Positions 8,144-54,888 of a stretch of DNA of 57,005 nucleotides are shown here, in pieces. Origin of the DNA: Nemertoderma westbladi (taxonomy: Eukaryota; Animalia; Xenacoelomorpha); assembly GCA_032718475.1 (NCBI GenBank), contig JAUCBJ010009098.1, positions 1 to 57,005 on the forward strand. Reading direction: 5' to 3'. The first letter of the stretch is position 1. Each line of letters begins with the position of its first letter. A program made the translations under genes and the position numbers. Below the pieces are notes generated by a model that saw only the letters and a program-made list of their open reading frames with translations, did no database searches and had not been told where the DNA came from.

Positions 8144-8159
8144 TATTGATGCTAGTAGC

Positions 8160-9691
8160 CCATTAACTCTGTCCCTGCCTGTGTCCCATTAACTCTGACC
8201 CGCCTGTGACCCACTAAATCTGTCCCCGCCCGAGTCCCATTAACTCTGTCCCCGCCTGTGTCCCATTAACTCTGTCCCCGCCTGTATCCCACTAACTATG
8301 ACCTGCCTGTGTCCCATTAACTCTGTCCCCGCCTGTGCCCCATTAACTCTGTCCCCGCCTGTGTCCACTAATTCTGACCCGCCTGTGTCCCACTAACTCT
8401 GTCCCCGCCTGTGTCCCATTAACTCTGTCCCCGCCTGTGTCCCATTAACTCTGTCCCCGCCTGTGTCCCATTAACTCTGTCCCCGCCTGTGCCCCATTAA
8501 CTCTGTCCCCGCCTGTGTCCACTAATTCTGACCCGCCTGTGTCCCACTAACTCTGTCCCCGCCTGTGTCCCATTAACTCTGTCCCCGCCTGTGTCCCATT
8601 AACTCTGTCCCAGCCTGTGTCCCATTAACTCTGCCCCCGCCTGTGTCCCATTAACTCTGTCCCCGCCTGTGTCCCATTAACTCTGTCCCCGCCTGTGTCC
8701 CACTAATTATGACCTGCCTGTGCCCCATTAACTCTGTCCCCGCCTGTGTCCCACTAATTCTGACCCGCCTGTGCCCCATTAACTCTGTCCCCGCCTGTGT
8801 CCCATTAACTCTGTCCCCGCCTGTGTCCCATTAACTCTGTCCCCGCTTGTGTCCCATTAACTCTGTCCCCGCCTGTGTCCCATTAACTCTGTCCCCGCAT
8901 GTGTCCCACTAATTCTGACCCGCCTGTGTCCCATTAACTCTGTCCCCGCATGTGTCCCGCTAACTCTAACCCCGCCTGTGTCCCATTAACTCTGTCCCCG
9001 CCTGTGTCCCATTAACTCTGTCCCCGCATGTGTCCCTCTAATTCTGACCCGCCTGTGTCCCATTAACTCTATCCCCGCCTGTGTCCCATTAACTCTGTCC
9101 CCGCCTGTGTCCCATTAACTCTGTCCCCGCCTGTGTCCCATTAACTCTGTCCCCGCTTGTGTCCCGCTAACTCTAACCTCGCCTGCGTCCCATTAACTCT
9201 GACCCGCCGTGACCCACTAAATCTGTCCCTGCCCGAGTCCCACTAACTCTGTCCCCGCCTGTGTCCCATTAACTCTGTCCTCGCCTGTGTCCCATTAACT
9301 CTGTCCCCGCCTGTCCCCGCCTGTGTCCCATTAACTCTGTCCCCGCATGTGTCCCACTAATTCTGACCCGCCTGTGTCCCATTAACTCTGTCCCCCCGCC
9401 TGTGTCCCATTAACTCTGTACCCCCGACTGTGTCCCATTAACTCTGTCCTCGCCTGTGTCCCATTAACTCTGTCCCCGCCTGTGTCCCATTAACTCTGTC
9501 CCCGCATGTGTCCCACTAATTCTGACCCGCCTGTGTCCCATTAACTCTGTCCCCGCATGTGTCCCGCTAACTCTAACCCCGCCTGTGTCCCATTAACTCT
9601 GTCCCCGCCTGTGTCCCATTAACTCTGTCCCCGCATGTGTCCCGCTAACTCTAACCCCGCCTGTGTCCCATTAACTCTGTCCCCCCGCCTG
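8160..9691. repeat. 25-26-bp minisatellite derived from the CKAP5 stop-codon region, about 58 copies
   Basis: Plus-strand unit cattaactctgtccccgcctgtgtcc. The terminal copy overlaps the last codons CAG GCG GGG GGA CAG AGT TAA. Confidence 0.95.
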
Positions 9692-10357
9692 TTTTATAAG
9701 CTCCAACCGCCTCTTTAGTTCCCCCATCGATGGGGTTCGGCCTTCCAACGAATCACCCGAATCGCTCCGATCCGTTAATGTTCCAACGATCTCGGTGACC
9801 ACCTCCGGCGGCATCTCATTGGCGGTCTCCGTGGTAACCGGTAGATTGAGCGCCGATCGGAACAACTCGAGTTTCTCCTCGGAAGTCCCGTTCACGGGGA
9901 CGTTGTTGCTCGCGACGCGATCTAACAGAGGCGCCCCCTTGTGGTGGAACTTCCGGATGTACCATAGGCCATTCCGAATAAACTTTCGTTTCTGTTCTGA
10001 GAACTCGGATAGTTTGGCGTCCATATCGTAGTCTGGGTTGGACTGCTTGTACTGATGCAGCGCCAGTAGACCCTGTTTCACGGTATCCTTGTTGCCGATC
10101 TGTTGGAATATAATCTCAACGGGTCCCAATGAACTCGGTATCTTTATGACGTCATCGTTGGCTACTTTAGTGTTGCTACGTCGTTTGATCTCCTTATTAA
10201 GAATCGCCTCGATCTCGCTGTTCTCTCTGTCCTCAATGAGTCCGAGGTGATGCAGGATAGCGCTGCCCTTAACGTCAACCATGTTGTGCAGGAGGGTCTT
10301 TACCGTTCGGAATATGTAATCGTCTTTGGCGCCATGCCAACCTCGCGATGGATGCAC
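9671..10357 (-). CDS. CKAP5: CKAP5 last coding exon (C-terminal tail)
   Basis: Acceptor acttaag|GTG. Translates VHPSRGW...FRTVKTLLH...IFQQIGNKDTVKQGLLALHQYK...ELKRRLELIK...QAGGQS, ending in TAA. Confidence 0.93.
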   Translation of the reverse strand: MHPSRGWHGAKDDYIFRTVKTLLHNMVDVKGSAILHHLGLIEDRENSEIEAILNKEIKRRSNTKVANDDVIKIPSSLGPVEIIFQQIGNKDTVKQGLLALHQYKQSNPDYDMDAKLSEFSEQKRKFIRNGLWYIRKFHHKGAPLLDRVASNNVPVNGTSEEKLELFRSALNLPVTTETANEMPPEVVTEIVGTLTDRSDSGDSLEGRTPSMGELKRRLELIKQAGGQS

Positions 10358-10404
10358 CTTAAGTAAACAAATAATTAAAATAACTAAACAACAACCTGAC
10401 TCTA

Positions 10405-13400
10405 TAGGAACCAGCAGACTTCCAAAAGGACTTCCTTACCTTTAGGAACCAGCAGACTTCTAAAAGGACTTCCTTACCTTTAGGAACCCGTGGACTTCTA
10501 AAAGGACTTCCTTACCTTTAGGTACCCGTGGACTTCCAAAAGGACTTCCTTACCTTTAGGAACCCGTGGAGTTCCAAAAGGACTTCCTTACCTTTAGGAA
10601 CCCGTGGACTTCCAAAAGGACTTCCTTACCTTTAGGAACCCGCGGACTTCCAAAAGGACTTCCTTACCTTTAGGAACCCGCGGACTTCCAAAAGGACTTC
10701 CTTACCTTTAGGAACCCGTGGACTTCCAAAAGGACTTCCTTACCTTTAGGAACCCGCGGACTTCCAAAAGGACTTCCTTACCTTTAGGAACCCGCGGACT
10801 TCCAAAAGGACTTCCTTACCTTTAGGAACCCGTGGACTTCCAAAAAGACTTACTTACCTTTAGGAATCCGTGGACTTCTAAAAGGACTTCCTTATCTTTA
10901 GGAACCCGTGGAGTTCCAAAAGGACTTCCTTACCTTTAGGAACCCGCGGACTTCCAAAAGGACTTCCTTACCTTTAGGTACCCGTGGACTTCCAAAAGGA
11001 CTTCCTTACCTTTAGGAACCCGTGGAGTTCCAAAAGGACTTCCTTACCTTTAGGAACCCGCGGACTTCCAAAAGGACTTCCTTACCTTTAGGAACCCGTG
11101 GACTTCCAAAAAGACTTCCTTACCTTTAGGAACCCGCGGACTTCCAAAAGGACTTCCTTACCTTTAGGAACCCGTGGAGTTCCAAAAGGACTTCCTTACC
11201 TTTAGGAATCCGCGGACTTCCAAAAGGACTTCCTTACCTTTAGGAACCCGTGGACTTCCAAAAGGACTTCCTTACCTTTAGGAACCCGTGGAGTTCCAAA
11301 AGGACTTCCTTACCTTTAGGAACCCGTGGACTTCCAAAAGGACTTCCTTACCTTTAGGAACCCGCGGACTTCCAAAAGGACTTCCTTACCTTTAGGAACC
11401 CGTGGACTTCCAAAAAGACTTACTTACCTTTAGGAATCCGTGGACTTCTAAAAGGACTTCCTTATCTTTAGGAACCCGTGGAGTTCCAAAAGGACTTCCT
11501 TACCTTTAGGAACCCGCGGACTTCCAAAAGGACTTCCTTACCTTTAGGTACCCGTGGACTTCCAAAAGGACTTCCTTACCTTTAGGAACCCGTGGAGTTC
11601 CAAAAGGACTTCCTTACCTTTAGGAACCCGCGGACTTCCAAAAGGACTTCCTTACCTTTAGGAACCCGTGGACTTCCAAAAAGACTTACTTACCTTTAGG
11701 AATCCGTGGACTTCCAAAAGGACTTCCTTACCTTTAGGAACCCGCGGACTTCCAAAAGGACTTCCTTACCTTTAGGAACCCGTGGACTTCCAAAAGGACT
11801 TCCTTACCTTTAGGAATCCGTGGACTTCCAAAAGGACTTCCTTACCTTTAGGAACCCGCGGACTTCCAAAAGGACTTCCTTACCTTTAGGAACCCGCGGA
11901 CTTCCAAAAGGACTTCCTTACCTTTAGGAACCCGTGGACTTCCAAAAGGACTTCCTTACCTTTAGGAACCCGCGGAGTTCCAAAAGGACTTCCTTACCTT
12001 TAGGAACCCGCGGACTTCTAAAAGGACTTCCTTATCTTTAGGAACCCGTGGAGTTCCAAAAGGACTTCCTTACCTTTAGGAACCCGTGGACTTCCAAAAG
12101 GACTTCCTTACCTTTAGGAACCCGCGGACTTCCAAAAGGACTTCCTTACCTTTAGGAACCCGTGGAGTTCCAAAAGGACTTCCTTACCTTTAGGAACCCG
12201 CGGACTTCCAAAAGGACTTCCTTACCTTTAGGAACCCGTGGAGTTCCAAAAGGACTTCCTTACCTTTAGGAACCCGCGGACTTCCAAAAGGACTTCCTTA
12301 CCTTTAGGAACCCGTGGAGTTCCAAAAGGACTTCCTTACCTTTAGGAACCCGTGGACTTCCAAAAGGACTTCCTTACCTTTAGGAACCCGCGGACTTCCA
12401 AAAGGACTTCCTTACCTTTAGGAACCCGTGGACTTCCAAAAGGACTTCCTTACCTTTAGGAACCCGCGGACTTCCAAAAGGACTTCCTTACCTTTAGGTA
12501 CCCGTGGACTTCCAAAAGGACTTCCTTACCTTTAGGAACCCGTGGAGTTCCAAAAGGACTTCCTTACCTTTAGGAACCCGTGGACTTCCAAAAGGACTTC
12601 CTTACCTTTAGGAACCCGCTATCTTCCAAAAGGACTTCCTTACCTTTAGGAACCCGTGGAGTTCCAAAAGGACTTCCTTACCTTTAGGAACCCGTGGACT
12701 TCCAAAAGGACTTCCTTACCTTTAGGAACCCGTGGACTTCCAAAAGGACTTCCTTACCTTTAGGAACCCGTGGACTTCCAAAAGGACTTCCTTACCTTTA
12801 GGAACCCGTGGTCTTCCAAAAGGACTTCCTTACCTTTAGGAACCCGCGGACTTCCAAAAGGACTTCCTTACCTTTAGGAACCCGTGGTCTTCCAAAAGGA
12901 CTTCCTTACCTTTAGGAACCCGCGGACTTCCAAAAGGACTTCCTTACCTTTAGGAACCCGTGGACTTCCAAAAGGACTTCCTTACCTTTAGGAACCCGTG
13001 GACTTCCAAAAGGACTTCCTTACCTTTAGGTACCCGTGGAGTTCCAAAAGGACTTCCTTACCGTCAGGAACCCGTGGACTTCCAAAAGGACTTCCTTACC
13101 TTTAGGTACCCGTGGAGTTCCAAAAGGACTTCCTTACCGTCAGGAACCCGTGGACTTCCAAAAAGACTTCCTTACCTTTAGGAACCCGTGGACTTCCAAA
13201 AGGACTTCCTTACCTTTAGGAACCCGTGGACTTCCAAAAGGACTTCCTTACCTTTAGGAATCCGTGGACTTCCAAAAGGACTTCCTTACCTTTAGGAACC
13301 CGTGGACTTCCAAAAGGACTTCCTTACCTTTAGGAACCCGCGGTCTTCCAAAAGGACTTCCTTACCTTTAGGAATCCGTGGAGTTCCAAAAGGACTTCCT

Positions 13401-16400
13401 TACCTTTAGGAACCCGTGGACTTCCAAAAGGACTTCCTTACCTTTAGGAACCCGTGGACTTCCAAAAGGACTTCCTTACCTTTAGGAACCCGTGGAGTTC
13501 CAAAAGGACTTCCTTACCTTTAGGAATCCGTGGAGTTCCAAAAGGACTTCCTTACCTTTAGGAAACCGTGGACTTCCAAAAGGACTTCCTTACCTTTAGG
13601 AATCCGTGGAGTTCCAAAAGGACTTCCTTACCTTTAGGAAACCGTGGACTTCCAAAAGGACTTCCTTACCTTTAGGAACCCGCGGTCTTCCAAAAGGACT
13701 TCCTTACCTTTAGGAACCCGCGGTCTTCCAAAAGGACTTCCTTACCTTTAGGAATCCGTGGAGTTCCAAAAGGACTTCCTTACCTTTAGGAATCCGTGGA
13801 GTTCCAAAAGGACTTCCTTACCTTTAGGAAACCGTGGACTTCCAAAAGGACTTCCTTACCTTTAGGAATCCGTGGAGTTCCAAAAGGACTTCCTTACCTT
13901 TAGGAAACCGTGGACTTCCAAAAGGACTTCCTTACCTTTAGGAATCCGTGGAGTTCCAAAAGGACTTCCTTACCTTTAGGAAACCGTGGACTTCCAAAAG
14001 GACTTCCTTACCTTTAGGAATCCGTGGAGTTCCAAAAGGACTTCCTTACCTTTAGGAAACCGTGGACTTCCAAAAGGACTTCCTTACCTTTAGGAATCCG
14101 TGGAGTTCCAAAAGGACTTCCTTACCTTTAGGAAACCGTGGACTTCCAAAAGGACTTCCTTACCTTTAGGAATCCGTGGAGTTCCAAAAGGACTTCCTTA
14201 CCTTTAGGAAACCGTGGACTTCCAAAAGGACTTCCTTACCTTTAGGAATCCGTGGAGTTCCAAAAGGACTTCCTTACCTTTAGGAATCCGCGGTCTTCCA
14301 AAAGGACTTCCTTACCTTTAGGAATCCGTGGAGTTCCAAAAGGACTTCCTTACCTTTAGGAAACCGTGGACTTCCAAAAGGACTTCCTTACCTTTAGGAA
14401 TCCGTGGAGTTCCAAAAGGACTTCCTTACCTTTAGGAAACCGTGGACTTCCAAAAGGACTTCCTTACCTTTAGGAACCCGCGGTCTTCCAAAAGGACTTC
14501 CTTACCTTTAGGAACCCGCGGTCTTCCAAAAGGACTTCCTTACCTTTAGGAATCCGTGGAGTTCCAAAAGGACTTCCTTACCTTTAGGAACCCGTGGACT
14601 TCCAAAAGGACTTCCTTACCTTTAGGAACCCGTGGACTTCCAAAAGGACTTCCTTACCTTTAGGAACCCGCGGACTTCCAAAAGGACTTCCTTACCTTTA
14701 GGAACCCGCGGACTTCCAAAAGGACTTCCTTACCTTTAGGTACCCGCGGAGTTCCAAAAGGACTTCCTTACCTTTAGGAACCCGCGGACTTCCAAAAGGA
14801 CTTCCTTACCTTTAGGAACCCGTGGACTTCCAAAAGGACTTCCTTACCTTTAGGAATCCGTGGAGTTCCAAAAGGACTTCCTTACCTTTAGGAAACCGTG
14901 GACTTCCAAAAGGACTTCCTTACCTTTAGGAACCCGCGGTCTTCCAAAAGGACTTCCTTACCTTTAGGAACCCGCGGACTTCCAAAAGGACTTCCTTACC
15001 TTTAGGAACCCGCGGACTTCCAAAAGGACTTCCTTACCTTTAGGAACCCGCGGACTTCCAAAAGGACTTCCTTACCTTTAGGAACCCGCGGACTTCCAAA
15101 AGGACTTCCTTACCTTTAGGAACCCGCGGACTTCCAAAAGGACTTCCTTACCTTTAGGAACCCGCGGACTTCCAAAAGGACTTCCTTACCTTTAGGTACC
15201 CGCGGAGTTCCAAAAGGACTTCCTTACCTTTAGGAACCCGCGGACTTCCAAAAGGACTTCCTTACCTTTAGGAACCCGTGGACTTCCAAAAGGACTTCCT
15301 TACCTTTAGGAATCCGTGGAGTTCCAAAAGGACTTCCTTACCTTTAGGAAACCGTGGACTTCCAAAAGGACTTCCTTACTTTTAGGAACCCGCGGTCTTC
15401 CAAAAGGACTTCCTTACCTTTAGGAACCCGCGGTCTTCCAAAAGGACTTCCTTACCTTTAGGAATCCGTGGAGTTCCAAAAGGACTTCCTTACCTTTAGG
15501 AACCCGTGGACTTCCAAAAGGACTTCCTTACCTTTAGGAACCCGTGGACTTCCAAAAGGACTTCCTTACCTTTAGGAACCCGTGGAGTTCCAAAAGGACT
15601 TCCTTACCTTTAGGAATCCGTGGAGTTCCAAAAGGACTTCCTTACCTTTAGGAAACCGTGGACTTCCAAAAGGACTTCCTTACCTTTAGGAATCCGTGGA
15701 GTTCCAAAAGGACTTCCTTACCTTTAGGAAACCGTGGACTTCCAAAAGGACTTCCTTACCGTCAGGAACCCGTGGACTTCCAAAAGGACTTCCTTACCTT
15801 TAGGAACCCGTGGAGTTCCAAAAGGACTTCCTTACCTTTAGGAACCCGTGGACTTCCAAAAGGACTTCCTTACCTTTAGGAACCCGTGGAGTTCCAAAAG
15901 GACTTCCTTACCTTTAGGAACCCGTGGACTTCCAAAAGAACTTCCTTACCTTTAGGAACCCGTGGAGTTCCAAAAGGACTTCCTTACCTTTAGGAACCCG
16001 TGGACTTCCAAAAGGACTTCCTTACCTTTAGGAACCCGTGGACTTCCAAAAGGACTTCCTTACCTTTAGGAACCCGTGGAGTTCCAAAAGGACTTCCTTA
16101 CCTTTAGGAACCCGCGGACTTCCAAAAGGACTTCCTTACCTTTAGGAACCCGCGGACTTCCAAAAGGACTTCCTTACCTTTAGGAACCCGCGGACTTCCA
16201 AAAGGACTTCCTTACCTTTAGGAACCCGCGGACTTCCAAAAGGACTTCCTTACCTTTAGGAACCCGTGGACTTCCAAAAGGACTTCCTTACCTTTAGGAA
16301 CCCGTGGAGTTCCAAAAGGACTTCCTTACCTTTAGGAATCCGCGGACTTCCAAAAGGACTTCCTTACCTTTAGGAACCCGTGGACTTCCAAAAGGACTTC

Positions 16401-19400
16401 CTTACCTTTAGGAATCCGTGGAGTTCCAAAAGGACTTCCTTACCTTTAGGAACCCGTGGACTTCCAAAAGAACTTCCTTACCTTTAGGAACCCGTGGAGT
16501 TCCAAAAGGACTTCCTTACCTTTAGGAACCCGTGGACTTCCAAAAGGACTTCCTTACCTTTAGGAACCCGTGGACTTCCAAAAGGACTTCCTTACCTTTA
16601 GGAATCCGTGGAGTTCCAAAAGGACTTCCTTACCTTTAGGAACCCGTGGACTTCCAAAAAAACTTCCTTACCTTTAGGAACCCGTGGAGTTCCAAAAGGA
16701 CTTCCTTACCTTTAGGAACCCGTGGACTTCCAAAAGGACTTCCTTACCTTTAGGAACCCGTGGACTTCCAAAAGGACTTCCTTACCTTTAGGAACCCGTG
16801 GAGTTCCAAAAGGACTTCCTTACCTTTAGGAACCCGCGGACTTCCAAAAGGACTTCCTTACCTTTAGGAACCCGCGGACTTCCAAAAGGACTTCCTTACC
16901 TTTAGGAACCCGCGGACTTCCAAAAGGACTTCCTTACCTTTAGGAACCCGCGGACTTCCAAAAGGACTTCCTTACCTTTAGGAACCCGTGGACTTCCAAA
17001 AGGACTTCCTTACCTTTAGGAACCCGTGGAGTTCCAAAAGGACTTCCTTACCTTTAGGAATCCGCGGACTTCCAAAAGGACTTCCTTACCTTTAGGAACC
17101 CGTGGACTTCCAAAAGGACTTCCTTACCTTTAGGAATCCGTGGAGTTCCAAAAGGACTTCCTTACCTTTAGGAATCCGTGGAGTTCCAAAAGGACTTCCT
17201 TACCTTTAGGAACCCGCGGACTTCCAAAAGGACTTTCTTACCTTTAGGAATCCGCGATCTTCCAAAAGGACTTCCTTACCTTTAGGAACCCGCGGACTTC
17301 CAAAAGGACTTCCTTACCTTTAGGAATCCGCGATCTTCCAAAAGGACTTCCTTACCTTTAGGAACCCGCGGACTTCCAAAAGGACTTCCTTACCTTTAGG
17401 AATCCGTGGACTTCCAAAAGGACTTCCTTACCTTTAGGAACCCGCGGACTTCCAAAAGGACTTCCTTACCTTTAGGAATCCGCGGACTTCCAAAAGGACT
17501 TCCTTACCTTTAGGAACCCGTGGAGTTCCAAAAGGACTTCCTTACCTTTAGGAACCCGCGGACTTCCAAAAGGACTTCCTTACCTTTAGGAATCCGTGGA
17601 GTTCCAAAAGGACTTCCTTACCTTTAGGAACCCGCGGATTTCCAAAAGGACTTCCTTACCTTTAGGAACCCGTGGAGTTCCAAAAGGACTTCCTTACCTT
17701 TAGGAACCCGCGGTCTTCCAAAAGGACTTCCTTACCTTTAGGAACCCGTGGACTTCCAAAAGGACTTCCTTACCTTTAGGAACCCGCGGACTTCCAAAAG
17801 GACTTTCTTACCTTTAGGAACCCGCGGATTTCCAAAAGGACTTCCTTACCTTTAGGAACCCGTGGAGTTCCAAAAGGACTTCCTTACCTTTAGGAACCCG
17901 CGGTCTTCCAAAAGGACTTCCTTACCTTTAGGAACCCGCGGATTTCCAAAAGGACTTCCTTACCTTTAGGAACCCGTGGAGTTCCAAAAGGACTTCCTTA
18001 CCTTTAGGAACCCGCGGTCTTCCAAAAGGACTTCCTTACCTTTAGGAACCCGCGGATTTCCAAAAGGACTTCCTTACCTTTAGGAACCCGTGGAGTTCCA
18101 AAAGGACTTCCTTACCTTTAGGAACCCGCGGTCTTCCAAAAGGACTTCCTTACCTTTAGGAACCCGTGGACTTCCAAAAGGACTTCCTTACCTTTAGGAA
18201 TCCGTGGAGTTCCAAAAGGACTTCCTTACCTTTAGGAACCCGCGGACTTCCAAAAGGACTTTCTTACCTTTAGGAATCCGCGATCTTCCAAAAGGACTTC
18301 CTTACCTTTAGGAACCCGCGGACTTCCAAAAGGACTTCCTTACCTTTAGGAATCCGCGATCTTCCAAAAGGACTTCCTTACCTTTAGGAACCCGCGGACT
18401 TCCAAAAGGACTTCCTTACCTTTAGGAATCCGTGGACTTCCAAAAGGACTTCCTTACCTTTAGGAACCCGCGGACTTCCAAAAGGACTTCCTTACCTTTA
18501 GAAATCCGCGGACTTCCAAAAGGACTTCCTTACCTTTAGGAATCCGTGGACTTCCAAAAGGACTTACTTACCTTTAGGAACCCGTGGACTTCCAAAAGGA
18601 CTTCCTTACCTTTAGGAACCCGTGGACTTCCAAAAGGACTTCCTTACCTTTAGGAACCCGCGGACTTCCAAAAGGACATCCTTACCTTTAGGAACCCGTG
18701 GACTTCCAAAAGGACTTCCTTACATTTAGGAACCCGCGGTCTTCCAAAAGGACTTCCTTACCTTTAGGAACCCGCGGACTTCCAAAAGGACTTCCTTACC
18801 TTTAGGAATCCGCGGTCTTCTAAAAGGACTTCCTTACCTTTAGGAACCCGTGGACTTCCAAAAGGACTTCCTTACCTTTAGGAACCCGCGGACTTCCAAA
18901 AGGACTTCCTTACCTTTAGGAACCCGCGGACTTCCAAAAGGACTTCCTTACCTTTAGGAACCCGTGGACTTCCAAAAGGACTTCCTTACCTTTAGGTACC
19001 CGCGGTCTTCCAAAAGGACGTTTTTACCTTTAGGAACCCGCGGTCTTCCAAAAGGACTTTCTTACCTTTAGGAATCCGCGGTCTTCCAAAAGGACTTCCT
19101 TACCTTTAGGAACCCGTGGACTTCCAAAAGGACTTCCTTACCTTTAGGAACCCGCGGACTTCCAAAAGGACTTTCTTACCTTTAGGAATCCGTGGACTTC
19201 CAAAAGGACTTCCTTACCTTTAGGAACCCGTGGACTTCCAAAAGGACTTCCTTACCTTTAGGAACCCGTGGACTTCCAAAAGGACTTCCTTACCTTTAGG
19301 AACCCGTGGACTTCCAAAAGGACTTCCTTACCTTTAGGTACCCGTGGACTTCCAAAAGGACTTCCTTACCTTTAGGAACCCGCGGACTTCCAAAAGGACT

Positions 19401-22400
19401 TCCTTACCTTTAGGAACCCGTGGACTTCCAAAAGGACTTCCTTACCTTTAGGTACCCGTGGACTTCCAAAAGGACTTCCTTACCTTTAGGTACCCGTGGA
19501 CTTCCAAAAGGACTTCCTTACCTTTAGGAATCCGTGGAGTTCCAAAAGGACTTCCTTACCTTTAGGAAACCGTGGACTTCCAAAAGGACTTCCTTACCTT
19601 TAGGAACCCGTGGAGTTCCAAAAGGACTTCCTTACCTTTAGGAATCCGCGGACTTCCAAAAGGACTTCCTTACCTTTAGGAACCCGTGGACTTCCAAAAG
19701 GACTTCCTTACCTTTAGGAATCCGTGGAGTTCCAAAAGGACTTCCTTACCTTTAGGAATCCGTGGAGTTCCAAAAGGAATTCCTTACCTTTAGGAACCCG
19801 TGGACTTCCAAAAGGACTTCCTTACCTTTAGGAACCCGTGGACTTCCAAAAGGACTTCCTTACCTTTAGGTACCCGTGGACTTCCAAAAGGACTTCCTTA
19901 CCTTTAGGAAACCGTGGACTTCCAAAAGGACTTCCTTACCTTTAGGAACCCGTGGAGTTCCAAAAGGACTTCCTTACCTTTAGGAATCCGCGGACTTCCA
20001 AAAGGACTTCCTTACCTTTAGGAACCCGTGGACTTCCAAAAGGACTTCCTTACCTTTAGGAATCCGTGGAGTTCCAAAAGGACTTCCTTACCTTTAGGAA
20101 TCCGTGGAGTTCCAAAAGGACTTCCTTACCTTTAGGAACCCGTGGAGTTCCAAAAGGACTTCCTTACCTTTAGGAACCCGTGGACTTCCAAAAGGACTTC
20201 CTTACCTTTAGGTACCCGTGGACTTCCAAAAGGACTTCCTTACCTTTAGGAACCCGTGGAGTTCCAAAAGGACTTCCTTACCTTTAGGAAACCGTGGACT
20301 TCCAAAAGGACTTCCTTACCTTTAGGAACCCGTGGAGTTCCAAAAGGACTTCCTTACCTTTAGGAATCCGCGGACTTCCAAAAGGACTTCCTTACCTTTA
20401 GGAACCCGTGGACTTCCAAAAGGACTTCCTTACCTTTAGGAACCCGCGGACTTCCAAAAGGACTTCCTTACCTTTAGGAATCCGCGGACTTCCAAAAGGA
20501 CTTCCTTACCTTTAGGAACCCGTGGAGTTCCAAAAGGACTTCCTTACCTTTAGGAATCCGCGATCTTCCAAAAGGACTTCCTTACCTTTAGGAACCCGCG
20601 GACTTCCAAAAGGACTTCCTTACCTTTAGGAATCCGCGATCTTCCAAAAGGACTTCCTTACCTTTAGGAACCCGCGGACTTCCAAAAGGACTTCCTTACC
20701 TTTAGGAATCCGTGGACTTCCAAAAGGACTTCCTTACCTTTAGGAACCCGTGGACTTCCAAAAGGACTTCCTTACCTTTAGGAACCCGTGGACTTCCAAA
20801 AAAACTTCCTTACCTTTAGGAACCCGCGGACTTCCAAAAGGACTTCCTTACCTTTAGGAACCCGCGGAGTTCCAAAAGGACTTCCTTACCTTTAGGAATC
20901 CGCGGACTTCCAAAAGGACTTCCTTACCTTTAGGAACCCGTGGAGTTCCAAAAGGACTTCCTTACCTTTAGGAATCCGCGATCTTCCAAAAGGACTTCCT
21001 TACCTTTAGGAACCCGCGGACTTCCAAAAGGACTTCCTTACCTTTAGGAATCCGCGATCTTCCAAAAGGACTTCCTTACCTTTAGGAACCCGCGGACTTC
21101 CAAAAGGACTTCCTTACCTTTAGGAATCCGTGGACTTCCAAAAGGACTTCCTTACCTTTAGGAAACCGTGGACTTCCAAAAGGACTTCCTTACCTTTAGG
21201 AATCCGTGGACTTCCAAAAGGACTTCCTTACCTTTAGGAACCCGTGGACTTCCAAAAAAACTTCCTTACCTTTAGGAACCCGCGGACTTCCAAAAGGACT
21301 TCCTTACCTTTAGGAACCCGTGGAGTTCCAAAAGGACTTCCTTACCTTTAGGAACCCGCGGTCTTCCAAAAGGACTTCCTTACCTTTAGGAACCCGCGGA
21401 CTTCCAAAAGGACTTCCTTACCTTTAGGAACCCGCGGACTTCCAAAAGGACTTCCTTACCTTTAGGAATCCGTGGACTTCCAAAAGGACTTCCTTACCTT
21501 TAGGAACCCGTGGACTTCCAAAAGGACTTCCTTACCTTTAGGAAACCGTGGACTTCCAAAAGGACTTCCTTACCTTTAGGAACCCGTGGACTTCCAAAAA
21601 GACTTCCTTACCTTTAGGAACCCGTGGACTTCCAAAAGGACTTCCTTACCGTCAGGAACCCGCGGACTTCCAAAAGGACTTCCTTGCCTTTAGGTACCCG
21701 TGGACTTCCAAAAGGACTTCCTTACCTTTAGGAACCCGCGATCTTCCAAAAGGACGTTTTTACCTTTAGGAACCCGCGGTCTTCCAAAAGGACTTCCTTA
21801 CCTTTAGGAACCCGTGGACTTCCAAAAGGACTTCCTTACCTTTAGGAACCCGCGGACTTCCAAAAGGACTTCCTTACCTTTAGGAATCCGTGGACTTCCA
21901 AAAGGACTTCCTTACCTTTAGGAACCCGTGGACTTCCAAAAGGACTTCCTTACCTTTAGGAAACCGTGGACTTCCAAAAGGACTTCCTTACCTTTAGGAA
22001 CCCGTGGACTTCCAAAAAGACTTCCTTACCTTTAGGAACCCGTGGACTTCCAAAAGGACTTCCTTACCGTCAGGAACCCGCGGACTTCCAAAAGGACTTC
22101 CTTGCCTTTAGGTACCCGTGGACTTCCAAAAGGACTTCCTTACCTTTAGGAACCCGCGATCTTCCAAAAGGACGTTTTTACCTTTAGGAACCCGCGGTCT
22201 TCCAAAAGGACTTTCTTACCTTTAGGAATCCGTGGACTTCCAAAAGGACTTCCTTACCTTTAGGAACCCGTGGACTTCCAAAAAGACTTCCTTACCTTTA
22301 GGAACCCGTGGACTTCCAAAAGGACTTCCTTACCTTTAGGAATCCGTGGACTTCCAAAAGGACTTCCTTACCTTTAGGTACCCGTGGACTTCCAAAAGGA

Positions 22401-25400
22401 CTTCCTTACCTTTAGGAACCCGCGGAGTTCCAAAAGGACTTCCTTACCTTTAGGAATCCGCGATCTTCCAAAAGGACTTCCTTACCTTTAGGAACCCGCG
22501 GACTTCCAAAAGGACTTCCTTACCTTTAGGAATCCGTGGACTTCCAAAAGGACTTCCTTACCTTTAGGAAACCGTGGACTTCCAAAAGGACTTCCTTACC
22601 TTTAGGAACCCGTGGACTTCCAAAAAAACTTCCTTACCTTTAGGAACCCGCGGACTTCCAAAAGGACTTCCTTACCTTTAGGAACCCGCGGAGTTCCAAA
22701 AGGACTTCCTTACCTTTAGGAATCCGCGATCTTCCAAAAGGACTTCCTTACCTTTAGGAACCCGCGGTCTTCCAAAAGGACTTCCTTACCTTTAGGAATC
22801 CGCGGACTTCCAAAAAGACTTCCTTACCTTTAGGAACCCGCGATCTTCCAAAAGGACTTTCTTACCTTTAGGAATCCGCGATCTTCCAAAAGGACTTCCT
22901 TACCTTTAGGAACCCGTGGACTTCCAAAAAGACTTCCTTACCTTTAGGAACCCGCGATCTTCCAAAAGGACTTTCTTACCTTTAGGAATCCGCGATCTTC
23001 CAAAAGGACTTCCTTACCTTTAGGAACCCGCGGTCTTCCAAAAGGACTTTCTTACCTTTAGGAATCCGTGGACTTCCAAAAGGACTTCCTTACCTTTAGG
23101 AACCCGTGGACTTCCAAAAAGACTTCCTTACCTTTAGGAGCCCGTGGACTTCCAAAAGGACTTCCTTACCGTCAGGAACCCGCGGACTTCCAAAAGGACT
23201 TCCTTGCCTTTAGGTACCCGTGGACTTCCAAAAGGACTTCCTTACCTTTAGGAACCCGCGATCTTCCAAAAGGACGTTTTTACCTTTAGGAACCCGCGGT
23301 CTTCCAAAAGGACTTTCTTACCTTTAGGAATCCGTGGACTTCCAAAAGGACTTCCTTACCTTTAGGAACCCGCGGACTTCCAAAAGGACTTCCTTACCTT
23401 TAGGAACCCGTGGACTTCCAAAAGGACTTCCTTACCTTTAGGAACCCGCGGTCTTCCAAAAGGACTTCCTTACCTTTAGGAACCCGCGGACTTCCAAAAG
23501 GACTTCCTTACCTTTAGGTACCCGTGGACTTCCAAAAGGACTTCCTTACCTTTAGGAACCCGCGGTCTTCCAAAAGGACTTATTTACCTTTAGGAATCCG
23601 CGGACTTCCAAAAGGACTTCCTTACCTTTAGGTACCCGTGGACTTCCAAAAGGACTTCCTTACCTTTAGGAACCCGTGGACTTCCAAAAGGACTTCCTTA
23701 CCTTTAGGAACCCGTGGACTTCCAAAAGGACTTCCTTACCGTCAGGAACCCGCGGACTTCCAAAAGGACTTCCTTACCGTCAGGAACCCGCGGACTTCCA
23801 AAAGGACTTCCTTACCTTTAGGTACCCGTGGACTTCCAAAAGGACTTCCTTACCTTTAGGAACCCGCGGTCTTCCAAAAGGACTTATTTACCTTTAGGAA
23901 TCCGCGGACTTCCAAAAGGACTTCCTTACCTTTAGGTACCCGTGGACTTCCAAAAGGACTTCCTTACCTTTAGGTACCCGTGGACTTCCAAAAGGACTTC
24001 CTTACCTTTAGGAACCCGCGGTCTTCCAAAAGGACTTATTTACCTTTAGGAATCCGCGGACTTCCAAAAGGACTTCCTTACCTTTAGGTACCCGTGGACT
24101 TCCAAAAGGACTTCCTTACCTTTAGGTACCCGTGGACTTCCAAAAGGACTTCCTTACCTTTAGGAACCCGCGGTCTTCCAAAAGGACTTATTTACCTTTA
24201 GGAATCCGCGGACTTCCAAAAGGACTTCCTTACCTTTAGGTACCCGTGGACTTCCAAAAGGACTTCCTTACCTTTAGGTACCCGCGGACTTCCAAAAGGA
24301 CTTCCTTACCTTTAGGAACCCGCGGTCTTCCAAAAGGACTTATTTACCTTTAGGAATCCGCGGACTTCCAAAAGGACTTCCTTACCTTTAGGTACCCGTG
24401 GACTTCCAAAATGACTTCCTTACCTTTAGGAACCCGCGGTCTTCCAAAAGGACTTATTTACCTTTAGGAATCCGCGGACTTCCAAAAGGACTTCCTTACC
24501 TTTAGGTACCCGTGGACTTCCAAAAGGACTTCCTTACCTTTAGGAACCCGTGGACTTCCAAAAGGACTTCCTTACCTTTAGGAACCCGTGGACTTCCAAA
24601 AGGACTTCCTTACCGTCAGGAACCCGCGGACTTCCAAAAGGACTTCCTTACCGTCAGGAACCCGCGGACTTCCAAAAGGACTTCCTTACCTTTAGGAACC
24701 CGTGGACTTCCAAAAGGACTTCCTTACCTTTAGGAACCCGCGGTCTTCCAAAAGGACTTATTTACCTTTAGGAATCCGCGGACTTCCAAAAGGACTTCCT
24801 TACCTTTAGGTACCCGTGGACTTCCAAAAGGACTTCCTTACCTTTAGGAACCCGTGGAGTTCCAAAAGGACTTCCTTACCTTTAGGAACCCGTGGACTTC
24901 CAAAAGGACTTCCTTACCTTTAGGAACCCGTGGACTTCCAAAAGGACTTCCTTACCGTCAGGAACCCGCGGACTTCCAAAAGGACTTCCTTACCGTCAGG
25001 AACCCGCGGACTTCCAAAAGGACTTCCTTACCGTCAGGAACCCGCGGACTTCCAAAAGGACTTCCTTACCTTTAGGAACCCGTGGACTTCCAAAAGGACT
25101 TCCTTACCTTTAGGAACCCGTGGACTTCCAAAAGGACTTCCTTACCGTCAGGAACCCGCGGACTTCCAAAAGGACTTCCTTACCGTCAGGAACCCGCGGA
25201 CTTCCAAAAGGACTTCCTTACCTTTAGGAACCCGTGGAGTTCCAAAAGGACTTCCTTACCTTTAGGAACCCGTGGACTTCCAAAAGGACTTCCTTACCTT
25301 TAGGAACCCGTGGACTTCCAAAAGGACTTCCTTACCTTTAGGAACCCGTGGACTTCCAAAAGGACTTCCTTACAGTCAGGAACCCGTGGACTTCCAAAAG

Positions 25401-28243
25401 GACTTTCTTACCTTTAGGAACCCGCGGACTTCCAAAAGGACTTTCTTACCTTTAGGAACCCGTGGACTTCCAAAAGGACTTCCTTACCTTTAGGTACCCG
25501 TGGACTTCCAAAAGGACTTCCTTACCTTTAGGAACCCGTGGACTTCCAAAAGGACTTCCTTACCTTTAGGAACCCGTGGACTTCCAAAAGGACTTCCTTA
25601 CCTTTAGGAACCCGCGGACTTCCAAAAAGACTTACTTACCTTTAGGAACCCGCGGACTTCCAAAAGGACTTCCTTACCTTTAGGAACCCGTGGACTTCCA
25701 AAAGGACTTCCTTACCTTTAGGAACCCGTGGACTTCCAAAAGGACTTCCTTACCTTTAGGAACCCGCGGACTTCCAAAAAGACTTACTTACCTTTAGGAA
25801 CCCGCGGACTTCCAAAAGGACTTCCTTACCTTTAGGAACCCGTGGACTTCCAAAAGGACTTCCTTACCTTTAGGAATCCGCGGTCTTCCAAAAGGACTTC
25901 CTTACCTTTAGGAACCCGTGGACTTCCAAAAGGACTTCCTTACCTTTAGGAACCCGCGGACTTCCAAAAGGACTTCCTTACCTTTAGGAACCCGTGGACT
26001 TCCAAAAGGACTTCCTTACCTTTAGGAACCCGCGGTCTTCCAAAAGGACTTCCTTACCTTTAGGTACCCGTGGACTTCCAAAAGGACTTCCTTACCTTTA
26101 GGAACCCGCGGTCTTCCAAAAGGACTTATTTACCTTTAGGAATCCGCGGACTTCCAAAAGGACTTCCTTACCTTTAGGTACCCGTGGACTTCCAAAAGGA
26201 CTTCCTTACCTTTAGGAATCCGCGGTCTTCCAAAAGGACTTCCTTACCTTTAGGTACCCGTGGACTTCCAAAAGGACTTCCTTACCTTTAGGAACCCGCG
26301 GTCTTCCAAAAGGACTTATTTACCTTTAGGAATCCGCGGACTTCCAAAAGGACTTCCTTACCTTTAGGAACCCGCGGTCTTCCAAAAGGACTTCCTTACC
26401 TTTAGGAATCCGCGGTCTTCCAAAAGGACTTCCTTACCTTTAGGAACCCGCTGGCTTCCAAAAGGCTTTCTTACCTTTAGGAACCCGCGGTCTTCCAAAA
26501 GGACTTCCTTACCTTTAGGAATCCGCGGTCTTCCAAAAGGACTTCCTTACCTTTAGGAATCCGCGGTCTTCCAAAAGGACTTCCTTACCTTTAGGAACCC
26601 GCGGTCTTCCAAAAGGACTTCCTTACCTTTAGGAACCCGTGGACTTCCAAAAGGACTTCCTTACCTTTAGGAATCCGTGGACTTCCAAAAGGACTTCCTT
26701 ACCTTTAGGTACCCGTGGACTTCCAAAAGGACTTCCTTACCTTTAGGAACCCGCGGACTTCCAAAAGGACTTCCTTACCTTTAGGAATCCGCGATCTTCC
26801 AAAAGGACTTCCTTACCTTTAGGAACCCGCGGACTTCCAAAAGGACTTCCTTACCTTTAGGAACCCGTGGACTTCCAAAAGGACTTCCTTACCTTTAGGA
26901 ACCCGTGGAGTTCCAAAAGGACTTCCTTACCTTTAGGAATCCGTGGACTTCCAAAAGGACTTCCTTACCTTTAGGAACCCGTGGACTTCCAAAAGGACTT
27001 TCTTACCTTTAGGAATCCGTGGAGTTCCAAAAGGACTTCCTTACCTTTAGGAACCCGCGGACTTCCAAAAGGACTTTCTTACCTTTAGGAATCCGCGATC
27101 TTCCAAAAGGACTTCCTTACCTTTAGGAACCCGCGGACTTCCAAAAGGACTTCCTTACCTTTAGGAATCCGTGGACTTCCAAAAGGACTTCCTTACCTTT
27201 AGGAACCCGTGGACTTCCAAAAAGACTTCCTTACCTTTAGGAATCCGTGGTCTTCCAAAAGGACTTCCTTACCTTTAGGAACCCGTGGAGTTCCAAAAGG
27301 ACTTCCTTACCTTTAGGAATCCGTGGACTTCCAAAAGGACTTCCTTACCTTTAGGAACCCGTGGACTTCCAAAAGGACTTCCTTACCTTTAGGAACCCGC
27401 GGACTTCCAAAAGGACTTCCTTACCTTTAGGAACCCGTGGACTTCCAAAAGGACTTCCTTACCTTTAGGAATCCGCGGTCTTCCAAAAGGACTTCCTTAC
27501 CTTTAGGAACCCGCGGTCTTCCAAAAGGACTTCCTTACCGTCAGGAACCCGTGGACTTCAAAAAGGACTTCCTTACCTTTAGGAACCCGCGGACTTCCAA
27601 AAGGACTTCCTTACATTTAGGAATCCGTGGACTTCCAAAAGGACTTCCTTACCTTTAGGAACCCGCGGCGTTCCAAAAGGACTTCCTTACCTTTAGGAAC
27701 CCGCGGCGTTCCAAAAGGACTTCCTTACCGTCAGGAACCCGTGGACTTCCTTACATTTAGGAACCCGCGGACTTCCAAAAGGACTTCCTTACCTTTAGGA
27801 ACCCGTGGACTTCCAAAAGGACTTCCTTACCTTTAGGAACCCGCGGCGTTCCAAAAGGACTTCCTTACCTTTAGGAACCCGCGGCGTTCCAAAAGGACTT
27901 CCTTACCGTCAGGAACCCGTGGACTTCCAAAAGGACTTCCTTACCTTTAGGAACCCGTGGACTTCCAAAAGGACTTCCTTACCTTTAGGAACCCGTAGAC
28001 TTCCAAAAGGACTTCCTTACCTTTAGGAACCCGTAGACTTCCAAAAGGACTTCCTTACCTTTAGGAACCCGCGGTCTTCCAAAAGGACTTCCTTACCTTT
28101 AGGAACCCGTGGACTTCCAAAAGGACTTCCTTACCTTTAGGAACCCGTGGACTTCCAAAAGGACTTCCTTACCTTTAGGAACCCGTGGACTTCCAAAAGG
28201 ACTTCCTTACCTTTAGGAACCCGTGGACTTCCAAAAGGACTTC
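10405..28243. repeat. 38-bp satellite, about 470 copies, equal to the exon end plus 5' splice site
   Basis: Minus-strand unit GAAGTCCTTTTGGAAGTCCACGGGTTCCTAAAG|GTAAG. The first copy is the end of exon 28211-28335. Confidence 0.97.
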
Positions 28244-28335
28244 ATCCAAATTGAGATCGGAGAAGAAACCATCTGATTTCATCCGTTTCCACAAACATTT
28301 CATAGGTAAGTTGATATGTCGGTCGTCTACCATAT
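28211..28335 (-). CDS. CKAP5: CKAP5 penultimate exon (not in ORF track)
   Basis: Acceptor tttctag|AT and donor AAG|gtaagg; 125 nt. Translates (D)MVDDRHINLPMKCLWKRMKSDGFFSDLNLDEVLLEVHGFLK, with the conserved MKCLW and L..+LL++H.F+K motifs. Confidence 0.92.
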
Positions 28336-28342
28336 CTAGAAA

Positions 28343-30648
28343 TGAAAGTAGACATTAGTGTAACTGAAAGTAGACATTAGTGTCACTGATGATGATGATC
28401 GGCTTGCACTAGGGTGCAGTGCCGGCGGCCCCAGAAACATAGCGCCCCCAGATCTTGCGGTCAGCCATACAATTTCCTAATTCATTCCTGTTCTCAAGTC
28501 CTGTGTCCTTGAGCAGGCGTTTGAGGAAAGTCATTGGCTGTCCACCACGTCTATTCTCGCCAGCAGGCTGCCACAGCACAAGGTTGTGTACAGGTTGATC
28601 CTGCCGGCGGAAACAGTGCCCAGCAAGCATTAGACGGCGTTTCTGCAGGGGGATGCTAGGTCTTGGCAATGAGATGTTACCATATTTATATAACACCTCA
28701 TTGCTTATGTGTGCATCATATGCTATGTTGTGCACCCGGCGAAGCATCCTGGTGTATGTGCCATCCAAGGACCTGGTGTCTTCAGCAGTTAGAGCCCAGC
28801 ATGGGCTGCCATAGAGCAGCACAGGCTCCACTGCTGCACGGAAAAGGCGTACCTTTAAAGAGCATGAGATGTCAGAGCTCTTCCAGATCCTGGATAGCTT
28901 GTGGATTGCGGACCAGGCTTTCCCTTTGCGAATTCGGAGATCTTCATCAGACCTCCGAACCCATGATCCAAGGTAGCAGAAGTCGTTCACATGACTTACC
29001 AGTCCATCCAGCGATTGAATGTTATCCCAATCAATTTTCTGCTGATCTGAATCCATGTTTACTGTCAGAATTTTGGTCTTTGTGCTATTCACAAAGAGGC
29101 CAACACTAGATGCAGCCTCCTCTAAGCTAGATAGCAGCTTCTGTGCTCCTTCTAATGTCTCTGACAGTAAACCAAGGTCATCTGCAAAGTCAAAGTCGGT
29201 TAGATGTTCTGCTGAGGAACCACGTCTACGGCTACCTGATGGTGGAGATATTTCCACCCCATCAGCTTCATGAAGATCGAGTGATGTCCGCAGCACATAG
29301 TCCACCACAATAATGAAGAGGAACGGGGCTAATGTGTCTCCTTGAAGGACACCCCAGAGAACCTCAAATGGGTCTGTGTCTCCATCAGTAGTGGATACAA
29401 AGGTCGTGGAACCGTCATATACTGATCTGATTGCATTAATGATCTCATTGGGGATCCCATATGCCTGAAGAATTTGGAACATGCGTTTCTGTGCTCCTTC
29501 TAATGTCTCTGACAGTAAACCAAGGTCATCTGCAAAGTCAAGGTCGGTTAGATGTTCTGCTGGGGAACCACGTCTACGGCTACCTGATGGTGGAGATATT
29601 TCCACCCCATCAGCTTCATGAAGATCGAGTGATGTCCGCAGCACATAGTCCACCACAATAATGAAGAGGAACGGGGCTAATGTGTCTCCTTGAAGGACAC
29701 CCCAGAGAACCTCAAATGGGTCTGTGTCTCCATCAGTAGTGGATACAAAGGTCGTGGAACCGTCATATACTGATCTGATTGCATTAATGATCTCATTGGG
29801 GATCCCATATGCCTCAAGAATTTGGACCATGCGTGGGCGTGACACGGAATCGAAGGCCTTGAAGAAATCCACAAATATGACAGCCAAATGTCTGTCTTTC
29901 TTTGTAGAAACCTCTTCAATAATCCTTCTAAGTGCCAGAATGGGTTCAAAGGTACCTCTACCTTTTCGAAACCCATTTTGATTCCCACGCAAGAGTCTTT
30001 CTACAGGATCCCTAATGCGATTCAGCATTATTCTGTTGAATAATTTAGCTGCAATTGAGATTAGACTAATTCCACGATATGAACCAAAATAGGAGAGGTT
30101 GCCCTTCTTTGGAACGGGTGTTAGCCGATTAGTCTTCAGTTCTTGTGGTGCAATCTTAGTGCGGTACATTTCTACTAGGATAGGGTGGGCTAGTTGAAGG
30201 CATTCTCTGATCTTAAAGACCTCGGGAGGCACATCATCAACACCAGATGCCCTATTGGTTTTAATGTCATTCGAAGCAGTGTCACTGAAAGTAGACATTA
30301 GTGTCACTGAAAGTAGACATTAGTGTCACTGAAAGTAGACATTAGTGTCACTGAAAGTAGACATTAGTGTCACTGAAAGTAGACATTAGTGTCACTGAAA
30401 GTAGACATTAGTGTAACTGAAAGTATACATTAGTGTAACTGAAAGTAGACATTAGTGTCACTGAAAGTAGACATTAGTGTCACTGAAAGTAGACATTAGT
30501 GTCACTGAAAGTAGACATTAGTGTCACTGAAAGTAGACATTAGTGTCACTGAAAGTAGACATTAGTGTCACTGAAAGTAGACATTAGTGTCACTGAAAGT
30601 AGACATTAGTGTCACTGAAAGTAGACATTAGTGTCACTGAAAGTAGAT
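28343..30648. repeat. 22-bp minisatellite (about 19 copies) split by the LINE insertion
   Basis: Unit agtgtcactgaaagtagacatt at 28343-28389 and 30278-30648. Confidence 0.93.
28390..30277 (-). mobile_element. 5'-truncated RTE-like LINE (reverse transcriptase) with target-site duplication
   Basis: Uninterrupted RT frame: YRGISL, QNGFRKGR, FVDFFKAFDSV, GVLQGDTLAPFLF, DFADD, FCYLGS. (ATC)n 3' tail. agtgtcactga is duplicated at 28379-28389 and 30278-30288. Confidence 0.93.
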
Positions 30649-30694
30649 ATTAATATAAAACGTGTATTTATCTGTAATCGAGCAGGCGACTGAC

Positions 30695-30893
30695 CGGTTT
30701 TGAGTCCGTCAGTGAGGAGTTTTATAAGAACACAGGTGACGTCGGTACAGTGGCAGTTGAGAACCGTGCGGATGAGTATGCAGTTAAAGGAACGAACGAG
30801 TTGGGAAGATTGATCGTCGTTGTTGAGAAAACGAGAATCTGTCATCAGGTTGAAGTAGATCTGTAGACAGTCGCGCAAAACATCCCGGCTGAT
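30695..30893 (-). CDS. CKAP5: CKAP5 exon
   Basis: Acceptor ctatatag|ATC and donor ACC G|gtcagt; 199 nt. Translates ISRDVLRDCLQIYFNLMTDSRF...QLVRSFNCILIRTVL...LLTDGLKT. Confidence 0.88.
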
Positions 30894-39111: not shown

Positions 39112-39211
39112 NNNNNNNNNNNNNNNNNNNNNNNNNNNNNNNNNNNNNNNNNNNNNNNNNNNNNNNNNNNNNNNNNNNNNNNNNNNNNNNNNNNNNNNNN
39201 NNNNNNNNNNN
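39112..39211. other. Assembly gap (100 N)
   Basis: Run of Ns at the junction between the exon and the array. Confidence 0.99.
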
Positions 39212-39536
39212 CTCTTGCCAAGGATTTCTTCTGCATTAGGTTCATTACTGTCCCCAACAAACAACGAATTAATTGGAAACATTCTAACTCCATAGAAGTA
39301 TCTCCTTCCTGATTGGCTGAAGGTTTACCTAATGCCAATTGGAATTGGAAACAAGTCGTCATGAGAAACTTATCCACGTGTTCCTTAAAATCCAAACAAC
39401 GTGATTGGTCGGATATGAGTATGTCGATCTCTGACAGCGCTCCTATCACAGTGTTGCTATCAGTAGATGCGATCTGAGATATTACCGTATCAAACATAGA
39501 TGATTGAGTGCTCGCTTTGGTTAATACCCGGGTATT
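39212..39536 (-). CDS. CKAP5: CKAP5 exon (C-terminal TOG-like region); 3' end truncated by assembly gap
   Basis: Acceptor ttgcag|AAT. Translates ...FDTVISQIASTDSNTVIGALSEID...MNLMQKKSLAR, then runs into Ns; the expected end is AGA GAG|gtgagt. An alternative in-frame acceptor lies at 39605. Confidence 0.85.
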
Positions 39537-47237: not shown

Positions 47238-47239
47238 TT

Positions 47240-51460: not shown

Positions 51461-51518
51461 TAGCAAGTCTTGTTGACTTACGTTTTTTTTTTTGCATAAA
51501 TTTAAGTAGTTGCGGTCT

Positions 51519-54887: not shown

Positions 54888-54888
54888 C

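Follow-up and report, generated by a model that had tools for sequence, protein, structure and literature searches.

The window analyzed here, a stretch of 57,005 nucleotides from Nemertoderma westbladi, carries on its reverse strand a gene that, as judged from its sequence, is CKAP5/XMAP215, which codes for a microtubule polymerase. In this gene, the Pfam domains CLASP_N and XMAP215_CLASP_TOG exceed their cut-offs, the protein matches are named CKAP5 or mini spindles, and the CKAP5 structure PDB 9f4c is matched with an E value of 2.4e-4. The window lacks the 5' part of the gene; the exons that it contains are colinear with full-length CKAP5/XMAP215, the TOG domains being followed by the conserved C-terminal region. 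Specifically, exon b (54889..56308, 1420 nt) was assigned to the TOG domains by protein and domain matches, whereas exon h (39212..39536, with its last bases hidden in an N gap), exon i (30695..30893), the 125-nt exon j (28211..28335) and exon k (9671..10357), the last coding exon, which encodes 228 aa of the CKAP5 C-terminal region, were placed by homology. Contigs additionally support exon k, spliced contigs flank exon j on both sides, and contigs of two runs, X3 and X5, connect exon i with exon j; exons e and f, which have no homology match, are placed by splice signals and reading frame. HMMER retrieved 83 relatives, none of them close, a search with exon b for proteins of similar length yielded 17 proteins with 38-44% identity, and longer proteins were sought with the last exon through a word index, none emerging from 2331 candidates. 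In a tree of exon b built without sponges, ctenophores, xenacoelomorphs and named spiralians, the sequence is placed next to echinoderms and hemichordates, on a long branch (0.93). An early idea, prompted by a motif, that the host might be a ctenophore gained no support.

The feature of interest lies near the end of the gene, in the intron downstream of exon j, an internal exon (a correction to an earlier note). A 38-nt minisatellite on the reverse strand (10405..28243) occupies 99.7% of this 17.85-kb intron, the length being that of the assembly; TRF gives a period of 38, 469.8 copies and 94% matches, and unit parsing yields 470 units of 63 types, 467 of which are exactly 38 nt long. As the preliminary description had claimed for some 470 copies, and as both analyses confirm, the unit consists of the final 33 nt of exon j, the codons E-V-L-L-E-V-H-G-F-L-K, followed by the initial five nucleotides of the intron, GTAAG. 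Copy 1 (28243-28206) is the coding exon end itself and spans the confirmed exon-intron boundary. The authentic donor (28205..28213, reverse strand, cut between 28211 and 28210) matches the U2-type consensus at 8 of 9 positions, and its 9-mer from -3 to +6 recurs in 405 exact copies within the intron. The earlier assertion that hundreds of donors share an identical local context thus holds for this 9-mer but fails for the wider surroundings: 93 whole units are identical to copy 1, and the context from -33 to +43 is found in 25 exact stretches. The array is followed by 47 nt of unique, U-rich sequence with the acceptor at 10358; from the last donor copy at 10439, through the degenerate last unit to this acceptor (10358..10439, reverse strand), an intron of only 82 nt would result, which the contigs do not use.

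The organization of the array bears on its history. The same series of 8-13 unit types reappear as blocks, offset by 2-55 units. Counted as distinct alleles per position, the donor core (0.86) and the remainder of the unit (0.90) vary alike, whereas counted by differing copies per position, the donor core appears less variable (6.0 vs 20.4). This lower by-copy variation is driven by a few amplified variants, but the pattern is unlike the erosion of decoys and weighs against the reading favored below. Folding of the RNA of exon j together with four units revealed no unusual structure that would mask the later donors (z = -0.55).

Two lines of evidence define the mature junction. In 116 of the 117 scoring homologs (120 examined), exons j and k follow each other without any gap, and X3 and X5 each have one contig that joins 28211 to 10357 with 0 inserted nucleotides; donor 28210 and acceptor 10358 are thereby confirmed. 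The junction predicted in the preliminary description is thus present, spliced sequences across the intron exist, and the donor used is, as had been stated, the most 5' one, farthest from the acceptor. X3 and X5 are two runs of two studies that are not recorded as RNA; we infer their RNA nature from contigs spliced at two introns, i-j and j-k. A processed retrocopy was considered as a source of the junction and rejected: X5 shares its sample with X1, where the contigs remain unspliced, and the unique flanks of the intron have depth in X1 and none in X3 or X5. In each of the two runs there is a single unbroken spliced contig, and the contigs of both show neither a perfect retained unit nor a loose end at donor 2. 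As far as the assembled contigs show, the gene yields its normal mRNA and does so chiefly with the authentic donor, the one farthest upstream.

Any transcript from a later donor would read an in-frame stop in unit 2 (28175..28177, reverse strand). Read-through beyond donor 1 gives VRKSFWKSTGS-stop, exactly as had been claimed, the stop ending 2 nt before the cut site of donor 2, so that only the most 5' donor yields the full-length protein; the product of a later donor would lose the C-terminal region, that is, the last 228 residues.

The array is one of several in this gene: within the window, tandem repeats make up 88% of the DNA of its introns, and they account for 78% of the whole window. 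The intron between exons h and i is filled by a 37-nt array (30956..39111, reverse strand) with 217 donor-like words, the unit of which is similar to the end of exon h; the match is 9 of 13 positions, a level reached by 0.14% of exon 13-mers in a post hoc comparison, and the real donor of exon h is hidden in the N gap at 39112-39211. A 41-nt array (52422..54887, reverse strand) begins 1 nt into the donor at which intron b-c starts and repeats the donor word from +1 to +6, without the exonic AG, 61 times. In intron i-j (28336..30652, reverse strand), the reverse-transcriptase ORF of a LINE (28409-30319) interrupts an acceptor-like array of 22-nt units, which lies at 30278-30652 and 28343-28389. 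Several other arrays of the gene carry no splice signal. In a test with junction windows, the 37-nt array does not reach significance (p 0.086); the low p values obtained there for the other three arrays, of 22, 38 and 41 nt, are circular, since these windows themselves include array sequence.

Most probably, then, the locus is a splice-donor minisatellite, a piece of exon end and intron start repeated about 470 times, of which the spliced sequences found use the first donor only. The array is likely to have grown through slippage and unequal crossing-over, as suggested by the block duplications of unit variants and by its more diverged 3' end. The spliceosome would probably commit to the first 5' splice site that it meets downstream of the acceptor of exon j itself and ignore the later copies, which is the likely reason why only the first donor is joined to the next exon. 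Under such a first-donor rule, the intron would be removed directly in one step, by analogy with human F7, and the array, one among the many minisatellite expansions that the introns of this gene contain, would be tolerated without having a function. The strict exon definition invoked in the preliminary description is not established, given that the same gene has an internal exon of 1420 nt.

Among the alternatives, the one that fares best, although we regard it as improbable, is that donors 2 and 3 are leaky, possibly in a regulated manner, and produce a minor XMAP215 mRNA without the last 228 residues, the state of the array tuning its dose. Stops within 50-55 nt of a junction usually escape junction-dependent nonsense-mediated decay, and for donors 2 and 3, a mere 2 and 40 nt would separate the stop from the last coding junction downstream of it; moreover, units 2-4 are identical in sequence to copy 1, and the nearest pseudo-sites are used in CBS and 6-16, according to the portion of PMC1557585 considered here. 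X3 also holds two low-depth array contigs, but each carries 2-3 variant letters and hence does not represent units 2-4, X5 has no array contigs at all, and the spliced contig is unbroken in either run. Since contigs lose rare variants, minor use of donors 2-3 would be compatible with these data.

Less probable still is stepwise removal, whereby donor 1 would be joined to an internal unit at its AG and regenerate the same donor, with the cycle repeated until the true acceptor is reached. The AG before the donor position is retained in 444 internal units, so that the AG|GT feature of a donor-regenerating recursive site is present, every step would restore an identical junction, and the mRNA left at the end would match the observed one; the mature junction cannot separate direct from stepwise removal. 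The evidence against it is the composition of the 21 nt that precede the internal AGs, with a mean U of 0.28, G of 0.28 and 0.82 extra AG, as compared to U of 0.38-0.67, G of 0.05-0.10 and 0-1 extra AG in the acceptor windows of the gene itself (ten windows, one of them off by one base and one shortened by the window end). In no internal unit does G fall below 0.19, and the U-rich pyrimidine tract typical of the gene's own acceptors is absent before the internal AGs. Stepwise removal at the AAG|GT junctions, as proposed in the preliminary description, is geometrically feasible but is disfavored by this mismatch; an intron of 18 kb is not known to require recursion. Even jointly, stepwise removal and a tuning of donor 2/3 use by array length, with truncated XMAP215 as the product, are improbable.

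It is very unlikely that the array is an assembly artefact or far shorter than 17.8 kb. The assembly may derive from X1 and X2, and the adjacent array in intron h-i ends at a 100-N gap; against this, the 63 unit types are arranged in ordered higher-order blocks, an X1 contig continues from unique sequence at the acceptor into the array, and contigs with unit variants come from three samples, one of which, X3, carries no flag as an assembly source. The summed contig depth on the units in X1 is some 500-860 times that of the flanking exons, an order of magnitude only, as contig depth is no measure of copy number. Least credible of all is the suggestion that the nascent or excised intron has its own function, as a sponge for U1 snRNP: the 405 strong donor words, together with the 217 donor-like words of intron h-i, could bind U1 transiently, but hundreds of sites on the nascent RNA of one gene are few compared to the U1 pool of the cell, the donor word shows no sign of selection at the allele level, and other large arrays of the same gene carry no donor.

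The interest of the locus lies in what it says about the choice between tandem donors. The published rules disagree: in F7, the most upstream donor wins (PMC1557585, as far as the portion considered here goes), whereas in assays with two strong donors at least 45 nt apart, the intron-proximal site wins (PMC3413131). The present intron is an extreme natural case, with 405 identical strong donors, the last of them 82 nt from the acceptor, and a spliced product that nevertheless uses the farthest one. The 63 unit variants are, in effect, barcodes from which long nascent reads could reveal the donor chosen and distinguish stepwise from direct removal. In practice, gene predictors and short-read aligners can be led astray by arrays of this sort. 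Were the stepwise or tuning reading true, an exon-end minisatellite would be a working splicing part of a spindle gene that is essential, and the lineage would be one in which introns expand through amplification of their own splice sites.

The locus does not demonstrate a new kind of element or a function. Recursive splice sites are AG|GT ratchet points inside long introns, and the giant introns of Drosophila Y genes reportedly reach megabases and are filled with satellite; the intron described here shares with them AG|GT junctions in a long intron made of a tandem repeat, but differs in lacking a pyrimidine tract, in its length of 18 kb and in the origin of the repeat from an exon of the gene itself. 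The array belongs instead to a known kind, the minisatellite that spans an exon-intron boundary, as in the F7-type VNTR and the amphioxus mirages: its first unit spans the real boundary and the donor is reiterated intact. The implication that the arrangement is unprecedented accordingly falls away, the kind being described for F7, CBS, LMNB2 and amphioxus. In the portion of PMC1557585 drawn on here, the 37-bp VNTR of human F7 intron 7 has 5-9 units of 4 exon and 33 intron nucleotides, with pseudo-sites shown to be functional by mutation (Borensztajn et al. 2006), and boundary minisatellites reiterate the donor of CBS IVS13, 6-16, LMNB2 and PDGFA in 10-25 copies. F7, LMNB2 and PDGFA share the geometry and the use of the first donor, the LMNB2 minisatellite covers most of an intron of which only the authentic donor is used, and first-donor preference is thus, as far as this portion goes, the published behavior of the class (PMC1557585). 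CBS and 6-16 differ in also using the two nearest pseudo-sites, which is unseen in the contigs here. The relevant part of PMC10078293 contains nothing on donor-spanning repeats. In amphioxus, which is not the host (41-43% identity to Branchiostoma CKAP5), the mirages in Adh3 and the globins BflGb6 and BflGb9 are described, in the part of PMC3087553 considered, as boundary tandem duplications on the donor and acceptor sides, unstable in length and leaving normal splicing undisturbed; the present gene likewise has both donor-side and acceptor-side arrays. As in F7, unit 1 spans the boundary, identical donors follow every 37-38 nt or so and only the most upstream one is used; unlike in F7, there are 470 units, each with 33 exon and 5 intron nucleotides. 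Judging from these partial accounts, what sets the array apart is its scale alone, 470 copies as compared to 5-25 in the published examples and 3-6 in amphioxus BflGb6.

The open reading frame at 54830-56308 encodes CLASP_N and XMAP215 TOG domains, and, among named relatives, CKAP5/mini spindles proteins match it best (38-50% identity); downstream, exon k matches a solved CKAP5 fragment (PDB 9f4c, E 2.4e-4). With four full-length homologs as tblastn queries, colinear exons were found across the window, and the gene model has ten exons, named a to k, with open frames and GT-AG ends; exons e and f stand in it without homology support, and a 100-N gap conceals the donor of exon h. The exon from which the preliminary description derived the repeat, exon j (28335-28211, minus strand), is thus internal, with exon k (10357-9671, minus strand) as the last coding exon. 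When the two exons were aligned separately to 120 homologs, 117 of which scored on both sides, the end of exon j and the start of exon k abutted with zero gap in 116 of the 117, the remaining one showing a 2-residue offset at the join. The protein sets searched contained no close relative; a tree of exon b, from which several phyla are absent, places it next to echinoderms and hemichordates at the end of a long branch.

The intron between exons j and k is filled by the minisatellite at 10405-28243, to which TRF assigns period 38, 469.8 copies and 94% matches. Its minus-strand parse gives 470 units of 63 types, with 467 measuring exactly 38 nt; the most frequent type (93 copies) has the sequence of copy 1. 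The array claimed in the preliminary description is thus real, and so is the unit, namely, the final 33 nt of the coding exon plus GTAAG, with copy 1 as the exon end itself. The "identical local context" of hundreds of donors, however, applies only to the -3..+6 word of the authentic donor (405 exact intronic copies); the wider context, -33..+43, is matched exactly at only 25 places in the intron. Read-through of this donor (donor 1) reproduces the product described before, 11 residues and a stop, and, since the stop ends 2 nt ahead of the cut site of the next copy (donor 2), use of any later donor truncates the protein. In 18 units, concentrated in the array's 5' third, a linked two-base variant abolishes the AG before the donor and makes a branch-point-like word.

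Is this intron removed? The last exon is present in five sequencing runs (X1-X5) from three studies, none of the five on record as RNA. Assembled contigs were compared on the last exon (X1, X3, X4, X5) and on the donor exon with two units (X1, X2, X3, X5). The X1 and X4 contigs continue unspliced through the acceptor and on into the array. The X3 (1279-nt) and X5 (634-nt) contigs, which come from separate samples and separate studies, end at the acceptor with the copy-1 unit as a loose end, and on the donor exon their loose ends match the first bases of exon k and the last bases of exon i. The junction by which splicing was to be recognized, 28211 to 10357, is found with zero inserted bases in both X3 (600/601) and X5 (503/504), from which we infer that these are RNA libraries. 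Mature splicing of the array intron, with donor 1 to exon k as the dominant product, is thereby verified. Because contigs drop rare forms, those of X3 and X5 show the dominant product only; no perfect retained unit was seen in them. X3 has two further array contigs of low depth (6.5 and 3.9) with variant letters, and X5 has no array contigs.

A duplication across the exon-intron boundary probably seeded the minisatellite, which would then have grown by slippage and unequal exchange. The junction from donor 1 is observed, and the intron is probably removed from this donor in a single step. The final donor copy lies 82 nt from the acceptor, so that pairing across the shortest intron would truncate the protein; the contigs contradict such pairing by showing the opposite product. 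Use of donor 1 despite this nearby competitor would be explained by a scan, or cross-exon commitment, from the acceptor of exon j to the first donor. A hard exon-size cap is unneeded and doubtful here, given the 1420-nt internal exon of this gene. RNA folding revealed no structure singling out donor 1 (z = -0.55). Distinct alleles per position (0.86 in the donor vs 0.90 in the rest of the unit) and differing copies per position (6.0 vs 20.4) show neither purging nor clear maintenance of the donors.

Minor truncated forms from donors 2 and 3 are a live possibility: their stops would lie 2 nt and 40 nt, respectively, upstream of the last coding junction, stops close upstream of the last junction usually escape junction-dependent NMD, and these products are therefore probably beyond its reach. 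Stepwise removal or tunable use of the array appears improbable. Recursive removal, in which each of the 444 internal AGs regenerates the same donor, would produce an identical mRNA, but the sequence around these AGs is not U-rich and G-poor as it is at the gene's own acceptors. Finally, a collapsed or invented repeat is argued against by ordered variant blocks of up to 13 units recurring at a lag of 19, as fits tandem turnover. X1, X2 and X3 all yield unit-variant contigs, and one X1 contig connects the unique acceptor side to array units; X1 and X2 may be the source of the assembly. The summed X1 depth on the units, ~500-860 times exon depth, is not a copy number. The feature is real, though its exact length may differ from the assembled one.

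Of the window, 78% is tandem repeat, and for the gene's intron DNA the share is 88%. Arrays longer than 150 nt occur in 6 of the 9 introns and, in four of these six, are associated with splice sites (38-, 37-, 41- and 22-nt units). The 37-nt array (30956-39211, minus strand, including the 100-N gap) has at least 220 units with 217 donor-like words, and in a post hoc comparison its unit and the final bases of exon h agree at 9/13 nt; the array reaches the gap hiding the real exon h donor and may exceed its assembled length. The 41-nt array begins 1 nt inside a donor, whose +1..+6 word is repeated 61 times, and the acceptor-like 22-nt array of intron i-j is split by a LINE. No significant match to any junction was obtained for the 39-, 42- and 23-nt arrays. 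With four splice-site arrays in one gene, the 38-nt array is the largest case of a gene-wide habit, which probably extends to this genome.

The LINE-type reverse-transcriptase ORF (28409-30319; 636 aa, RVT_1) holds an internal 348-nt tandem duplication, and at its end contig depth is high in 4/4 runs compared. By eye, sequences at 47237-47400 (3' end, intron f-h) and 2600-3700 (endonuclease-like pieces downstream of the gene) look like the same family; ORFs tested at 2814-3694 had no Pfam match. Further large minisatellites, at 964-2369, 3877-6817 and 39618-47237 (32-, 46- and 39-nt units), have no clear splice-site link. The CCAAT-box-like CCAATCA is common to three unrelated arrays (1-238, 30956-39111, 51518-52194), which may reflect chance or a motif favouring array growth. 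At the 3' end of the gene, a 26-nt array (8159-9684, ~59 units) starts within the last codons and extends into the 3' UTR as repeats of the region around the stop codon. Here an X3 contig departs from the last exon at 9707 and resumes in sequence matching 7634-7607; this 9707-7636 jump (minus strand), which a GT-AG intron or a deletion allele could account for, bypasses the 26-nt array as well as the stop codon and would yield a different 30-residue C-terminus, whereas X5 continues unspliced into that array.

The 38-nt array belongs to a known kind of boundary repeat. According to one study (PMC1557585), the human F7 37-bp VNTR is a boundary-spanning donor repeat of like geometry, whose pseudo-donors are functional by mutation, yet the most upstream alone is chosen; the geometry and the choice of the donor lying most upstream are shared here, the mutation test being that of F7. 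Amphioxus "mirages" comprise donor- and acceptor-side arrays with undisturbed splicing (PMC3087553), whereas for strong donors at least 45 nt apart the proximal site is reported to be preferred, contrary to F7 (PMC3413131). Searches of largely open-access literature found no account of hundreds of donors in one array, nor of this locus. CBS, 6-16, LMNB2 and PDGFA have similar boundary repeats of 10-25 copies (PMC1557585) vs the 470 units assembled here; what is unusual is this size, as assembled, and the recurrence of such arrays within one essential gene.
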